A stretch of 64,000 nt of DNA from the NCBI RefSeq assembly GCF_003334335.1, contig NZ_QOWQ01000024.1; one strand, written 5' to 3'. Shown here in pieces: positions 8,811-45,628 of this stretch (within the stretch, counting starts at the first letter, position 1; the number at the start of each line of letters is the position of its first letter). Source of the stretch: Escherichia coli (GTDB taxonomy: Bacteria; Pseudomonadota; Gammaproteobacteria; Enterobacterales; Enterobacteriaceae). Both the position numbers and the translations under genes were made by a program. The notes beneath the pieces were generated by a model. The model did no database searches and was not told where the DNA came from. It worked only from the letters and a program-made list of their open reading frames with translations.

Positions 8811-8890
8811 GGCCTGATAAGACGCGTGAGCGTCGCATCAGGCATCGTTCACCATTGCCGGATGCGGCGTTAACGCCTTATCCGGCCTAC
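8811..8890. repeat. BIME (pair of inverted REP elements)
   Basis: GCCTGATAAGACGCG...CGCATCAGGC and GCCGGATGCGGCG...CTTATCCGGCCTAC REP units between convergent ypfH and ypfN. Confidence 0.8.
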
Positions 8891-20139: not shown

Positions 20140-20228
20140 ATGGCGGGACATGTAGGCCGGATAAGACGCTGTAGGCCGGATAAGACGCGTCAGCGTCGCA
20201 TCCGGCAATCAGCATCCGGCAATCACCA
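20140..20228. repeat. REP cluster with internal tandem duplications
   Basis: TGTAGGCCGGATAAGACGC occurs twice in tandem and CATCCGGCAATCA twice in tandem, abutting the tktB stop codon. Confidence 0.8.
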
Positions 20229-34987: not shown

Positions 34988-36387
34988 ACACTCGCCAGCT
35001 ATTGAGCGTCGGTATCGATATCGGCACCACCACCACCCAGGTGATTTTCTCCCGGCTGGAGCTGGTTAACCGTGCGGCGGTGTCGCAGGTGCCGCGCTAC
35101 GAATTCATTAAACGCGAAATTAGCTGGCAAAGTCCGGTGTTCTTTACCCCTGTCGATAAACAGGGCGGTTTAAAAGAAGCGGAACTGAAAACCTTAATAC
35201 TCGAGCAATATCATGCTGCGGGTATTGAGCCGGAAAGCGTTGATTCTGGTGCCATCATCATCACCGGTGAAAGCGCGAAAACCCGCAATGCTCGCCCGGC
35301 GGTGATGGCGCTCTCTCAGTCGCTGGGCGATTTTGTCGTTGCCAGCGCCGGGCCGCACCTCGAATCCGTGATCGCCGGTCACGGAGCCGGGGCACAAACC
35401 CTTTCTGAACAACGGCTGTGTCGGGTACTGAATATCGACATCGGCGGTGGCACCGCGAACTACGCCCTGTTCGATGCCGGAAAAATCAGCGGCACTGCCT
35501 GCCTCAACGTCGGTGGTCGCCTGCTGGAAACCGACAGCCACGGGCGCGTGGTTTACGCTCATAAACCGGGGCAGATGATTGTGGATGAGTGCTTCGGTGC
35601 AGGCACCGACGCCCGTTCGCTGACCGGCGCGCAGCTGGTGCAGGTGACCCGGCGGATGGCAGAACTGATTGTCGAAGTGATTGACGGAACGCTCTCACCG
35701 CTCGCGCAGGCATTGATGCAAACCGGTTTGCTGCCCGCAGGTGTTACGCCCGAAATCATTACGCTTTCTGGCGGCGTGGGCGAATGTTATCGCCACCAGC
35801 CCGCCGACCCGTTCTGTTTTGCCGATATTGGCCCGCTGCTGGCAACTGCGCTGCATGACCATCCGCGCCTGCGTGAGATGAACGTACAGTTTCCGGCGCA
35901 AACCGTGCGCGCCACGGTGATTGGCGCGGGCGCGCATACCCTTTCGCTCTCTGGCAGCACAATCTGGCTTGAGGGCGTACAACTGCCGCTGCGCAATTTG
36001 CCGGTGGCGATCCCGATTGATGAAACGGATCTGGTGGGGGCCTGGCAACAGGCGCTGATTCAGCTGGATCTTGATCCCAAAACTGACGCGTACGTGCTGG
36101 CGCTTCCCGCCTCGCTGCCTGTGCGTTACGCCGCGGTACTGACGGTCATCAACGCGTTGGTCGATTTCGTCGCGCGTTTTCCGAATCCGCATCCCCTGCT
36201 GGTGGTGGCCGGGCAGGACTTTGGTAAAGCTCTGGGCATGTTGTTGCGCCCACAGCTACAACAACTCCCGTTGGCAGTCATTGACGAAGTGATTGTCCGC
36301 GCGGGGGACTATATCGACATTGGTACGCCTCTTTTTGGCGGATCGGTTGTGCCGGTGACGGTGAAATCACTCGCATTTCCTTCCTGA
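34984..36387 (+). CDS. eutA: ethanolamine ammonia-lyase reactivating factor
   Basis: 467-aa ORF with GTG start and a 4-nt overlap (GTGA) with the eutH stop. Confidence 0.93.
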   Translation: MNTRQLLSVGIDIGTTTTQVIFSRLELVNRAAVSQVPRYEFIKREISWQSPVFFTPVDKQGGLKEAELKTLILEQYHAAGIEPESVDSGAIIITGESAKTRNARPAVMALSQSLGDFVVASAGPHLESVIAGHGAGAQTLSEQRLCRVLNIDIGGGTANYALFDAGKISGTACLNVGGRLLETDSHGRVVYAHKPGQMIVDECFGAGTDARSLTGAQLVQVTRRMAELIVEVIDGTLSPLAQALMQTGLLPAGVTPEIITLSGGVGECYRHQPADPFCFADIGPLLATALHDHPRLREMNVQFPAQTVRATVIGAGAHTLSLSGSTIWLEGVQLPLRNLPVAIPIDETDLVGAWQQALIQLDLDPKTDAYVLALPASLPVRYAAVLTVINALVDFVARFPNPHPLLVVAGQDFGKALGMLLRPQLQQLPLAVIDEVIVRAGDYIDIGTPLFGGSVVPVTVKSLAFPS

Positions 36388-37780: not shown

Positions 37781-38668
37781 ATGGATCAAAAACAGATTGA
37801 AGAAATTGTACGCAGCGTGATGGCGTCAATGGGACAAGCGGCCCCCGCGCCGTCAGAAGCAAAGTGCGCCACCACCAACTGTGCGGCACCGGTGACCTCG
37901 GAAAGCTGTGCGCTGGATTTAGGTTCCGCTGAAGCAAAAGCGTGGATTGGTGTTGAAAATCCGCATCGCGCAGACGTATTAACAGAACTGCGCCGCAGCA
38001 CCGTGGCCCGCGTTTGTACCGGTCGTGCCGGTCCGCGTCCACGTACGCAGGCGCTGCTGCGTTTCCTGGCCGATCACTCTCGTTCGAAAGATACCGTACT
38101 GAAAGAAGTGCCGGAAGAGTGGGTGAAAGCGCAGGGCTTGCTGGAAGTACGCTCTGAAATTAGCGACAAAAATCTCTACCTGACTCGCCCGGATATGGGC
38201 CGCCGCCTGTGTGCAGAAGCTGTTGAAGCGCTGAAAGCGCAGTGTGTTGCCAATCCGGACGTACAGGTCGTTATTTCTGATGGCCTGTCAACTGATGCGA
38301 TCACCGTGAACTACGAAGAGATCCTGCCACCGCTGATGGCGGGCCTGAAACAGGCCGGGCTGAAAGTCGGTACACCATTCTTTGTTCGTTATGGTCGCGT
38401 GAAGATTGAAGATCAGATCGGTGAGATCCTCGGCGCGAAAGTAGTGATCCTGCTGGTGGGCGAACGTCCGGGGTTGGGTCAGTCAGAAAGCCTCTCCTGC
38501 TACGCCGTTTACTCGCCGCGTATGGCGACCACCGTTGAGGCCGATCGCACCTGTATCTCTAACATTCACCAGGGCGGCACGCCGCCGGTTGAAGCCGCAG
38601 CCGTCATTGTGGATTTGGCGAAACGTATGCTGGAGCAGAAAGCATCCGGCATCAACATGACCCGATAA
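37781..38668 (+). CDS. eutC: ethanolamine ammonia-lyase small subunit
   Basis: 295-aa ORF with an N-terminal amphipathic targeting-type extension ([19 protein letters not shown]). Confidence 0.96.
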
Positions 38669-38677
38669 GGAGGCATC

Positions 38678-39337
38678 ATGCCAGCTTTAGATTTGATTCG
38701 ACCGTCTGTCACCGCTATGCGGGTGATTGCCTCCGTTAACGCCGATTTTGCGCGTGAACTGAAATTGCCGCCGCATATTCGTAGCCTCGGTCTGATTTCT
38801 GCCGACTCCGATGACGTCACCTACATTGCCGCTGATGAAGCGACCAAGCAGGCGATGGTGGAAGTGGTGTATGGCCGCTCGCTATATGCGGGCGCTGCAC
38901 ACGGCCCGTCACCGACTGCCGGTGAAGTGCTGATTATGCTTGGTGGGCCAAACCCGGCGGAAGTGCGTGCAGGTCTGGATGCGATGATTGCGCATATTGA
39001 AAATGGCGCAGCTTTCCAGTGGGCTAATGACGCGCAAGATACGGCATTCCTGGCACATGTAGTTTCGCGTACCGGTTCTTATCTCTCATCAACCGCCGGG
39101 ATCACGCTTGGCGATCCGATGGCGTATCTGGTGGCACCGCCGCTGGAAGCGACCTATGGCATTGATGCAGCCCTGAAGTCTGCCGACGTACAGCTGGCGA
39201 CCTATGTCCCGCCACCGTCTGAAACCAACTACTCGGCAGCATTTTTAACCGGTAGCCAGGCAGCGTGTAAAGCAGCCTGTAACGCCTTTACCGATGCAGT
39301 GCTGGAAATCGCGCGTAATCCAATCCAGCGTGCGTAA
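38678..39337 (+). CDS. eutL: BMC-T tandem-domain shell protein EutL
   Basis: 219-aa ORF. Confidence 0.93.
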
Positions 39338-39349
39338 CGGAGGTTGCCG

Positions 39350-39850
39350 ATGATCAATGCACTGGGATTGCTGGAAGTGGACGGCATGGTCGCCGCGATA
39401 GATGCAGCGGATGCCATGCTCAAAGCAGCTAACGTTCGTCTGCTCAGTCACGAAGTGCTTGACCCTGGTCGCTTAACGCTGGTGGTGGAAGGCGATCTGG
39501 CGGCGTGTCGTGCGGCGCTGGACGCAGGTTGTGCTGCCGCGATGCGTACCGGGCGTGTCATCAGCCGCAAGGAGATCGGTCGGCCAGACGATGACACCCA
39601 GTGGCTGGTTACTGGCTTTAACCGCCAGCCGAAGCAACCCGTAAGGGAACCCGACGCGCCAGTTATCGTCGCGGAATCTGCTGACGAGTTGTTGGCGCTG
39701 TTAACATCAGTACGTCAGGGAATGACGGCAGGAGAAGTGGCTGCCCACTTTGGCTGGCCGCTGGAAAAAGCCAGAAATGCGCTCGAACAGCTCTTTTCTG
39801 CCGGGACGTTACGTAAACGCAGTAGTCGTTATCGTCTCAAGCCCCATTAA
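39350..39850 (+). CDS. eutK: BMC-H shell protein EutK with C-terminal extension
   Basis: ORF-track frame 39344..39850. The second ATG gives a 166-aa product beginning MINALGLLEVDGMVAAIDAADAMLKAA (BMC domain), followed by a basic C-terminal domain. Confidence 0.9.
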   Translation: MINALGLLEVDGMVAAIDAADAMLKAANVRLLSHEVLDPGRLTLVVEGDLAACRAALDAGCAAAMRTGRVISRKEIGRPDDDTQWLVTGFNRQPKQPVREPDAPVIVAESADELLALLTSVRQGMTAGEVAAHFGWPLEKARNALEQLFSAGTLRKRSSRYRLKPH

Positions 39851-39895
39851 CCTGTCGGAGGTGCCGGGTGTCCTACAACACCCGGCATTAACATC

Positions 39896-40948
39896 ATGAA
39901 AAAGACCCGTACAGCCAATTTGCACCATCTTTATCATGAACCCTTACCCGAAAACCTGAAGCTCACGCCGAAGGTCGAAGTGGATAATGTTCATCAACGA
40001 CAGACAACGGATGTCTATGAACATGCTTTAACGATTACCGCCTGGCAGCAGATTTACGATCAGCTGCATCCGGGCAAGTTTCATGGTGAATTTACGGAAA
40101 TTCTACTCGATGATATTCAGGTTTTTCGTGAATACACCGGTCTGGCGCTGCGTCAGTCGTGCCTGGTCTGGCCGAACTCGTTCTGGTTTGGCATTCCGGC
40201 GACGCGCGGTGAGCAGGGATTTAACGGTTCGCAATGTCTGGGAAGCGCGGAAATCGCCACCCGCCCTGGTGGCACTGAATTTGAACTGAGCACGCCGGAT
40301 GATTACACGATCCTGGGCGTGGTGCTTTCTGAAGATGTCATCACCCGGCAGGCTAACTTTTTGCATAACCCGGATCGGGTATTACATATGTTGCGTAACC
40401 AGTCGGCGCTGGAAGTGAAAGAGCAGCATAAAGCCGCGCTGTGGGGCTTTGTCCAACAGGCGCTGGCGACGTTTTGCGAGAATCCGGAAAATCTCCATCA
40501 GCCTGCAGTGCGAAAAGTGCTGGGGGATAATTTGCTAATGGCGATGGGGGCCATGCTGGAAGAAGCGCAACCAATGGTGACGGCGGAAAGCATCAGTCAT
40601 CAGAGTTACCGTCGATTGCTTTCCCGCGCCCGTGAATATGTGCTGGAAAACATGTCCGAACCGGTGACGGTGCTGGATTTGTGTAATCAACTGCATGTCA
40701 GCCGCCGCACGCTACAAAACGCGTTTCACGCTATTTTAGGCATTGGCCCGAACGCGTGGCTGAAACGCATTCGCCTGAACGCCGTACGCCGCGAACTGAT
40801 AAGTCCGTGGTCGCAAAGTATGACGGTAAAAGACGCCGCCATGCAGTGGGGATTCTGGCATCTGGGGCAATTTGCCACGGATTACCAGCAGCTGTTTTCC
40901 GAGAAGCCGTCACTGACGCTGCATCAGCGGATGCGGGAGTGGGGGTGA
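39896..40948 (+). CDS. eutR: AraC-family transcriptional activator of the eut operon
   Basis: 350-aa ORF with a C-terminal AraC-type helix-turn-helix. Last gene of the operon. Confidence 0.93.
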
Positions 40949-40953
40949 GGGAG

Positions 40954-41856
<903 letters not shown>

Positions 41857-42726
41857 TTATCGCTTTTTCGAATGTGCTTTCTGGTTGTCGAACCAGTGGA
41901 AATAACTGATCACGCCTTCAGCAATCGCTGTGGCGATTTTCTGACGAAACGCCGCCGTGCCTAACAGCCGTTCTTCTTCCGGGTTGGTGATAAACGAGGT
42001 TTCCACCAGCACCGAAGGAACCGACGGTGATTTCAACACCACAAATGCCGCTTGTTCGGTGTTGCGGCTGTGCAGTTTATGCACCGGCTTAATCTTCTTC
42101 AGAATATGCGAGCCGAGCGTCAGACTATTTTTAATGGTATCTGTTTGCACCAGATCAAACAGCACTTGTTGCAATAGGTGATCCTTGTCAGTCGCCTTTT
42201 TACCGGCAACTTCATCGGCGCGGTTTTCGCGTTCAGACAGGTATTTCGCCATTGCGCTACTTGCCCCACGGTTAGAGAGGGCAAATACCGAAGCACCGGC
42301 AGCTTTCGGGTTGGTAAAGCCATCGGCATGAATTGACATAAACAGATCTGCGCCATGTTTATGGGCGATTTCAACGCGATCGTAAAGTGGGATAAACGTA
42401 TCGCCAGAACGCGTTAAACGCGCATCAATCCCATGATTACGCAAAATGGAACGGACGTTTTTAGCAATCGCCAGCACCACATGTTTTTCTTTCGAACCGT
42501 TGCGTCCGATCGCTCCGGTATCAATTCCGCCGTGACCTGGATCGAGAACAACGACACGTTTGCCGCCAGATTTTTTGGCTTTCGGCTTGCTGTGTCCGTT
42601 GCTGGTTTTTAAAAGTTCGTCTTTGGCGATGGCTTGCGACATTCCTGACAACGTCAGGGCAGCCAAACCGGCTTTCAGCACCTGGCGGCGCGAAGTGAGT
42701 GTTTTTAGTGGTTTAAAAGTGCTCAT
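41857..42726 (-). CDS. amiA: N-acetylmuramoyl-L-alanine amidase A
   Basis: 289-aa ORF with a Tat-type signal peptide (SRRQVLKAGLAALT) and amidase_3 domain, 3 nt upstream of hemF. Confidence 0.95.
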   Translation of the reverse strand: MSTFKPLKTLTSRRQVLKAGLAALTLSGMSQAIAKDELLKTSNGHSKPKAKKSGGKRVVVLDPGHGGIDTGAIGRNGSKEKHVVLAIAKNVRSILRNHGIDARLTRSGDTFIPLYDRVEIAHKHGADLFMSIHADGFTNPKAAGASVFALSNRGASSAMAKYLSERENRADEVAGKKATDKDHLLQQVLFDLVQTDTIKNSLTLGSHILKKIKPVHKLHSRNTEQAAFVVLKSPSVPSVLVETSFITNPEEERLLGTAAFRQKIATAIAEGVISYFHWFDNQKAHSKKR

Positions 42727-42939
42727 ACGGCCTGAGTTGTAATAATAAAGTTCCAGATGTTATATCGTATCGCGTAATCCGTTACGACGGTTTGCTGTTG
42801 AGAATTGTTTTACTTTTCATTTCAATAGTTGACAACTCCCCATTATGCCACTTTTTCAACCGATTTTCGTCAGATATTGGCTAATTCGACCGTTCACGCC
42901 ATAATCAGCCTTTTAACCCGCAAAAAGGTAACGAATACC

Positions 42940-43365
42940 ATGGAGATACGCGTATTTCGCCAGGAAGATTTCGAAGAGGTCATCACCCTTTGGGAGCGTT
43001 GCGACTTGCTGCGTCCGTGGAACGATCCGGAAATGGACATCGAGCGTAAGATGAACCATGACGTCAGTTTGTTTTTGGTCGCTGAGGTAAACGGTGACGT
43101 GGTCGGAACGGTGATGGGCGGTTATGACGGGCATCGCGGGTCTGCTTATTATCTTGGCGTGCATCCAGAGTTTCGTGGGCGTGGGATTGCCAATGCGTTG
43201 CTTAATCGGCTGGAGAAAAAGCTGATTGCTCGTGGCTGCCCGAAAATTCAGATCAATGTGCCGGAAGATAACGACATGGTGCTCGGAATGTATGAACGCC
43301 TGGGATATGAACACGCCGACGTGCTGAGTCTGGGTAAGCGTTTGATTGAAGATGAAGAGTACTGA
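42940..43365 (+). CDS. ypeA: GNAT-family acetyltransferase YpeA
   Basis: ORF-track frame 42829..43365. ATG at 42940 gives a 141-aa product beginning [19 protein letters not shown] with a GNAT motif ([10 protein letters not shown]). Confidence 0.9.
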
Positions 43366-43801
43366 GTTTCATCCTGTCCATTATGATGCGCACGGTCGCC
43401 TGCGTTTACCCTTGCTCTTCTGGCTTGTGCTATTGCTTCAGGCGCGAACCTGGGTGCTGTTTGTCATTGCCGGTGCGTCGCGCGAGCAGGGTACTGCGCT
43501 GCTAAATCTGTTTTATCCCGATCACGATAATTTCTGGCTGGGGCTGATTCCTGGCATTCCGGCGGTGCTGGCGTTTTTGTTGAGCGGTCGGCGGGCTACG
43601 TTTCCTCGCACCTGGCGTGTACTCTATTTTCTGTTGCTGTTGGCGCAGGTGGTTTTACTTTGCTGGCAACCGTGGCTGTGGCTGAACGGTGAATCCGTTA
43701 GCGGTATCGGTCTGGCGCTGGTAGTGGCGGATATTGTGGCGTTAATCTGGCTGCTGACCAATCGACGTTTACGCGCTTGTTTTAATGAAGTAAAAGAATA
43801 A
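43346..43801 (+). CDS. yfeZ: inner-membrane protein YfeZ
   Basis: About 150-aa hydrophobic ORF overlapping the ypeA 3-prime end. The exact start (43346 or 43352) is uncertain. Confidence 0.85.
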
Positions 43802-45489: not shown

Positions 45490-45628
45490 TGTTGACCAAG
45501 TGCGCGTTGTACACGCCGGATGCGGCGTGAACGCCTTATCCGGCCTACGAAATCGTGCTAATTCAATATATTGTGGGCTCCACGTAGGCCTGATAAGCGT
45601 AGCGCATCAGGCAGTTTTGCGTTTGTCA
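45490..45628. repeat. RIP-type BIME (REP - IHF-site core - REP)
   Basis: Two inverted REPs flank the AT-rich core AATTCAATATATTG, which fits the IHF consensus WATCAANNNNTTR at 12 of 13 positions. Same element family as 56431..56567. Confidence 0.8.

Follow-up and report, generated by a model that had tools for sequence, protein, structure and literature searches.

Organization of the locus

The window analyzed here is a 64,000-nt stretch of Escherichia coli DNA (contig NZ_QOWQ01000024.1 of RefSeq assembly GCF_003334335.1), and positions are those of the window unless MG1655 is named. The eutR coding sequence (39896..40948, + strand) is a 350-aa open reading frame for an AraC-type activator and is the last gene of the eut operon. 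Its final codons, tgg and ggg, carry a run of five G residues (40941..40945) and are followed by the stop TGA at 40946-40948. Facing it on the minus strand is hemF (40954..41853), a 299-aa open reading frame for the oxygen-dependent coproporphyrinogen III oxidase, whose stop TAA (40956..40954) reads tta on the plus strand. Between the two stops lies the 5-nt spacer GGGAG (40949..40953), and 40940-40959 reads tgggggTGAgggagTTAcac in full. Also on the minus strand, amiA (41857..42726) ends 3 nt short of the hemF start, and the two form an amiA-hemF unit. These identities agree with RefSeq, which gives the same gene names to identical or nearly identical DNA and there too places amiA 3 nt ahead of hemF.

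By blastn the region matches E. coli K-12 MG1655 at 99.97% identity, in reverse orientation, and for window positions 38078-43578 the MG1655 coordinate is 2595078 minus the window position. In the MG1655 annotation hemF is placed at 2553225..2554124 and eutR at 2554130..2555182, which gives the identical 5-nt gap. The separation of the stops by 5 nt, reported in the initial annotation, is therefore supported by the sequence, the open reading frame listing and the MG1655 annotation alike, and the tail-to-tail arrangement is already known, being present in that reference annotation. No nucleotides are shared between the two coding sequences in the window. Given the 5-nt spacer, it is physically impossible for both transcripts to end ahead of the opposing coding sequence.

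To place this spacing in context, gaps were taken from the 17 convergent junctions in 150 kb of MG1655 annotation, a small sample. They measure -4, -4, 5, 35, 39, 39, 40, 42, 43, 56, 83, 148, 149, 188, 195, 220 and 239 nt, with three of the 17 at 5 nt or less. The eutR/hemF gap is short yet not exceptional.

Terminators, RNA structure and REP elements

The initial annotation had also held that the junction has no room for terminators, and the scans agree with this: none returned a site at the junction, and the RNA there folds no better than shuffled sequence. Between 39000 and 43500 a consensus terminator scan found 6 sites against 6.3 expected from shuffles, none of them at the junction, while a hairpin-plus-U scan of the read-through RNAs of both strands yielded weak candidates with poor U tails, all within coding sequence. 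An intrinsic bidirectional terminator was defined as a G+C-rich hairpin between an A tract and a T tract, giving a U run on either strand; no such element lies at or near 40949-40953. A hairpin at 40855-40888 (+) was considered as a terminator for eutR and excluded, as it precedes the eutR stop. When 120 nt centred on the junction were folded and compared with shuffles, the z-scores were -1.76 (+) and -0.83 (-), and no unusually stable hairpin was present. A search of 39500-43000 against Rfam gave no matches at E ≤ 1.

REP elements were recognized as palindromes with the conserved tail CTTATC(C/A)GGCCTAC. The tail motif occurs 12 times in the whole window, against 0.03 expected, and is absent between 39500 and 43000. 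Inverted REP pairs lie at other convergent junctions of the window, yfeW/yfeX (45535-45597) and yfeS/cysM (56461-56523). Together with the eutR-hemF spacers of related genera described below, these belong with the REP/BIME convergent junctions of enterobacteria, from which the REP-free eutR/hemF junction of Escherichia differs. Further REP/BIME matches in the window are found at 8877, 20152-20184, 33570-33709 and 55436, the pair at 33570-33709 being repeated about 100 nt apart. With neither an intrinsic terminator nor a REP element at the junction, polymerases on both strands are expected to run past their own stops.

A convergent pair that lacks a canonical terminator also invites another reading, namely that transcription stops at the junction itself through head-on collisions of RNA polymerases, at an overlapping bidirectional terminator independent of both Rho and hairpin-U signals. 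Overlapping bidirectional, collision-driven terminators were reportedly described by Ju et al. in 2019, and hundreds of genes in E. coli are reportedly under the control of this class. For such a terminator the nascent RNA must form a stem-loop between the gene boundaries, and its action does not depend on Rho (Wang et al. 2022, bioRxiv 10.1101/2022.10.23.513370). The likeness of eutR/hemF to these systems is confined to its being a convergent pair without a canonical intrinsic terminator: 5 nt cannot hold a stem-loop and the RNA is unstructured relative to shuffles. Both units are moreover weakly expressed in standard media, where collisions would be rare. The transcript ends described next bear on the same reading.

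Transcript ends on the hemF strand

Published data place a Rho termination region, assigned to the antisense class with respect to eutR, at MG1655 2554640 (+) (Adams et al. 2021, eLife, PMC7815308, Supplementary file 2). Reads upstream and downstream of this position numbered 78 and 18 without treatment and 102 and 106 with bicyclomycin, for a Rho score of 4.50 (p = 8.9e-8); the call was made in 800-nt windows from low read counts (78 vs 18) (PMC7815308). Its resolution is thus coarse, and the true stops could fall anywhere in the first ~0.5 kb. The MG1655 plus strand corresponds to the hemF strand, and the coordinate map places the position at about 40438 in the window, inside eutR and 516 nt beyond the hemF stop, with the region as a whole at 40423..40467 (-). 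A weak hairpin of -14.7 kcal/mol with a poor U tail lies in this region. The terminated transcripts may start at the amiA or hemF promoters.

Base composition along the read-through RNAs was scored as the C/G ratio in 78-nt windows. On the hemF strand the RNA from 40615 to 40480 has ratios of 1.6-2.5, and its peak of 2.5 exceeds the 99th percentile for the window, 2.21. This C-rich, G-poor tract (40480..40615, -), 338-470 nt beyond the hemF stop and 40-180 nt upstream of the published Rho position, is a candidate rut region. C/G enrichment by itself predicts Rho sites weakly. On this strand two features of a Rho-dependent terminator coincide, an untranslated stretch of about 80 nt upstream that is rich in C and poor in G and, in the published data, read-through that is raised by bicyclomycin. 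The locus itself appears in the table of Adams et al., as an "antisense" bicyclomycin-sensitive region after a C-rich, G-poor stretch, and on the hemF strand it does not differ from the Rho-suppressed antisense read-through that they describe; the eut strand has no entry there, and its assignment to the same class is by inference (PMC7815308).

The Adams tables list no sharp Term-seq 3' ends on either strand in MG1655 2552900-2554699 under three growth conditions (PMC7815308). Such an absence fits diffuse ends of the Rho type, low expression, or both. Taken with the bicyclomycin sensitivity of hemF-strand read-through, which marks it as Rho-dependent, and with z-scores of -1.76 and -0.83 that leave no stem-loop at the junction, the lack of sharp ends argues against a collision-type bidirectional terminator. 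This candidate was rejected, and we regard collision-driven termination here as extremely improbable.

A second and far stronger Rho region lies on the same strand at MG1655 2558053 (+), or about 37025 (-) in the window, antisense to eutB (Adams et al.). Its reads are 523 and 24 without treatment and 371 and 399 with bicyclomycin, and its Rho score is 23, pointing to a well-expressed antisense RNA in the distal eut operon.

Transcription from the eut side

A lacZ transcriptional reporter adjoining the eutR stop in E. coli 536 reached 37 ± 2 Miller units when ethanolamine was supplied; under choline conditions its activity was unmeasurable (PMC10710832). Since the reporter is induced at the eutR stop, induced polymerases must cross the 5-nt spacer into hemF antisense. 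Together with the hemF-strand Rho region inside eutR, this upholds the earlier proposal that the two transcripts overlap or end inside the opposing gene.

Where the eut transcripts end is less directly indicated. The Adams tables contain no Rho or 3'-end entry past eutR on the eut strand for MG1655, in which the eut operon is uninduced and split by the CPZ-55 prophage. By blastn the operon of the window strain is not split. Base composition suggests two places at which Rho may act. The untranslated RNA immediately past the eutR stop (40949..41050, +) has C/G ratios of 1.6-1.9, at roughly the 90th-97th percentile, and is a possible early loading site. The strongest C-rich, G-poor tract on the eut strand (41638..41806, +), with ratios up to 3.0, lies within hemF antisense, 690-860 nt beyond the eutR stop, and is likewise a candidate. 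We infer from composition alone that eut transcripts may undergo Rho-dependent termination within hemF antisense.

Unlike MG1655, the window lacks the 6.77-kb cryptic prophage CPZ-55, leaving the eut operon uninterrupted in an otherwise K-12-like strain. At the corresponding point, 36365-36387 at the eutA/eutB boundary, the two blastn alignments have 23 bp in common, in what looks like an attachment site.

Antisense RNA and duplexes in hemF and amiA

Perfectly paired 21-nt RNase III products have been captured from MG1655 with p19 (Huang et al. 2020, mBio, PMC7373196). Exact-match mapping of their Table S3 places one 21-nt sense/antisense duplex in hemF at 41533..41553 (both strands), about 590 nt beyond the eutR stop. 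This duplex implies that an antisense RNA opposite hemF exists and pairs with the mRNA. A further p19-captured dsRNA lies in mid-amiA at 42286-42306, in a cluster labelled "New AS" that is 1.3 kb from the eutR stop (PMC7373196). In the same study dsRNA was detected from 87% of genes (PMC7373196).

The source of these antisense RNAs admits of two accounts. Transcripts of the eut operon might run deep into hemF, or they might end through Rho within 100-250 nt of the eutR stop, with the deeper antisense of hemF and amiA coming from separate internal promoters, so that the two operons would barely overlap on the eut side. The C/G ratios directly past the eutR stop are compatible with such an early end, and the dsRNA was recovered from MG1655, with its prophage-split and uninduced eut operon. 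The "New AS" label of the amiA cluster and its distance from the eutR stop point the same way. A weak promoter-like site at about 41450 (+) lies upstream of the 41533-41553 duplex, and the hemF antisense RNA could arise there independently of eut read-through. The promoter-like matches are poor (8/12), however, and none passed the standard scan. We hold the early-stop account to be possible but somewhat doubtful.

A model for the junction

We consider it quite likely that eutR/hemF is an ordinary terminator-less convergent junction at which Rho cuts back the read-through and RNase III deals with the duplex RNA that remains. Polymerases from either side would pass their own stop and enter the antisense strand of the opposing gene. 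Ribosomes would leave at the stop codon, the RNA beyond it would be untranslated, and Rho could then load on C-rich, G-poor stretches and end transcription. For the hemF strand the model would place this event at the published bicyclomycin-sensitive termination about 0.5 kb inside eutR, directly downstream of the C-rich tract. For the eut strand, passage beyond the eutR stop is indicated by the reporter, and a Rho stop in hemF antisense is suggested by base composition. The 3' overlap would produce some sense/antisense duplex, which RNase III would cut as it does at most E. coli genes. The effect of the overlap on expression is probably small.

Such overlap is the usual state of convergent units in E. 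coli. Complementary 3' ends were found in 276 of 370 convergent K-12 operons (75%), the average length of the overlap being 286 nt (Conway et al. 2014, mBio, PMC4161252). The eutR/hemF pair resembles these overlapping convergent operons in being tail to tail, with read-through into the neighbour and complementary 3' ends. Most such pairs, however, have an intergenic spacer, often with a leaky terminator or a REP element, whereas the 5 nt of eutR/hemF make the overlap obligatory rather than a matter of leakiness. The junction is consequently real but ordinary: it is annotated, its hemF-side Rho stop is already published, and overlapping 3' ends occur genome-wide.

The initial annotation went further and took the junction to imply transcriptional interference or antisense pairing between the two operons. 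In its full form this reading would make the terminator-less abutment a selected cis-antisense or transcriptional-interference device: eut induction would drive polymerases and antisense RNA through hemF and amiA and lower the expression of both, by polymerase collision or because RNase III cuts the duplexes, with a corresponding effect in the opposite direction. Some of the observations above are in keeping with this, as polymerases must cross into the opposing gene and dsRNA duplexes are present in hemF and amiA. Overlap and dsRNA are both generic, however, being seen in 75% of convergent operons and 87% of genes, respectively. Rho limits read-through, and the induced transcription reaching the junction is modest, at 37 Miller units. 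A literature search for a link between eut induction and hemF expression found nothing relevant, and the lack of any reported coupling counts against the device. The step from overlap to regulatory interference is unsupported. The variation of the junction in nature provides further evidence on both sides.

Variation within E. coli and Escherichia

A 1-kb probe over the junction (40450-41450) matched 5,425 of 5,426 complete E. coli genomes. Identity was at least 99% in 1,218 of the 5,426 records and 95-99% in 3,960, with many of the matches listed lying near 96.4%. Junction variants were counted with 40- and 41-mer probes, each able to seed on one variant alone. The form with the 5-G run and the 5-nt gap was found in 2,490 genomes as the GAG version and in 2,765 as the GAA version, which puts the 5-nt spacing in no fewer than 5,255 of the 5,426 genomes. 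One G has been lost in 36 of the 5,426, mostly O145; in this 4-G variant eutR gains seven codons (EGVTPNP) and its coding sequence shares 17 nt with that of hemF. An example is E. coli O145 RM9154-C1 (L002 1004-1020). In other Escherichia clades (L007 and L040) the 5-nt spacer is retained despite different stop codons or spacer bases.

Larger changes occur as well. In E. coli 2017-02-2CC (L004 1-3000) the hemF stop is the exact starting point of an island of at least ~3 kb, and eutR is elsewhere in the genome. The island encodes a DUF1963 protein, a hypothetical protein, a T6SS immunity protein of the Tli3 family and a SEL1-repeat protein. Escherichia whittamii carries a 1,784-nt insert between eutR and hemF (L009 3560-5343), with a TacA-like antitoxin (Pfam PF08681, E = 3e-25) beside a 171-aa GNAT acetyltransferase that has weak Pfam matches. 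From their sequences the two look like a TacAT-type toxin-antitoxin pair. The insert also holds an unannotated 223-aa open reading frame, and an NCBIfam search of the insert proteins gave nothing useful. In E. coli 720632 (L001 3447-4499) the annotation marks eutR, which has an internal stop, as a pseudogene, and the junction is 100% identical to that of the window; the eutR open reading frame of the window itself is intact.

The junction in related genera

A EutR query run against one genome per species returned 63 loci. The convergent eutR/hemF arrangement is kept in Escherichia, Citrobacter, the Klebsiella oxytoca group, Salmonella enterica subsp. arizonae, Pseudocitrobacter, Intestinirhabdus and a MAG labelled Pluralibacter, and EutR homologues of 71% identity or less have no hemF within 2.5 kb downstream. 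Wherever the genes are adjacent, EutR has about 350 residues (352 in E. whittamii) and the alignment to HemF runs to residue 299, the last, so that only the spacer differs among the loci. It measures 5 nt in Escherichia, 8 nt in the MAG labelled Pluralibacter, 19 nt in Intestinirhabdus, 54-150 nt in Citrobacter, Klebsiella and Salmonella, and 425-973 nt in three loci (L029, L030 and L032). On these comparisons, tight spacing is characteristic of Escherichia.

The 54-150 nt spacers are filled by REP-type palindromes, one to three in each, that fold with energies of -20 to -70 kcal/mol. In all, the REP motif was found in the orthologous eutR-hemF spacer of 19 related loci, with 1-13 copies in Citrobacter, Klebsiella and Pseudocitrobacter. 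Among the longest spacers, that of Citrobacter sp. NCU1 is 910 nt (L030 3554-4463) at a locus with 13 REP-motif matches, and that of another Citrobacter is 425 nt (L029 3554-3978) at a locus with 4. Arrays of REP evidently grow at the junction.

These comparisons bear on the interference device in two ways. The conservation of 5-nt spacing across Escherichia, even where stop codons differ, would be expected of a selected arrangement, and the REP spacers of the relatives could insulate both units there. On the other hand, natural variants alter the geometry freely, by a 17-nt overlap and by kilobase-scale insertions in one E. coli strain and in E. whittamii, and free variation of the junction through overlap, REP arrays and islands argues against a finely tuned device. 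In our judgment a selected interference device is highly unlikely. A more specific proposal is that Escherichia, without the REP spacer of its relatives (whether lost or absent), is left with obligatory antisense co-transcription of eutR and hemF, such that strong eut induction by ethanolamine plus B12 in the gut would lower hemF and amiA through colliding polymerases and cleavage by RNase III, and the reverse; we rate this as very improbable. Were such coupling true, it would link the catabolism of ethanolamine to the oxygen-dependent branch of haem synthesis.

The 5-nt spacer of Escherichia and the REP-filled spacer of its relatives form a clean natural pair for asking whether REP insulates convergent operons. 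The eutR/hemF site serves as a neutral insertion point for eut reporters, with the inserts being transcribed from both sides, and in nature it accepts REP arrays and small islands.

A few of the retrieved loci come from assemblies of doubtful composition. The MAG HRGM_Genome_0066, labelled "Citrobacter sp.", is probably a mixed bin: one of its contigs has an eutR of E. coli type (99% identity, 5-nt junction) and another is of Citrobacter type (91%, 54-nt spacer; L006 and L037). Tiny contigs in "Bacillus hominis" and "Prolixibacteraceae" assemblies (L062-L064) carry pieces of EutR with 94-99% identity to the query and are probably contamination.
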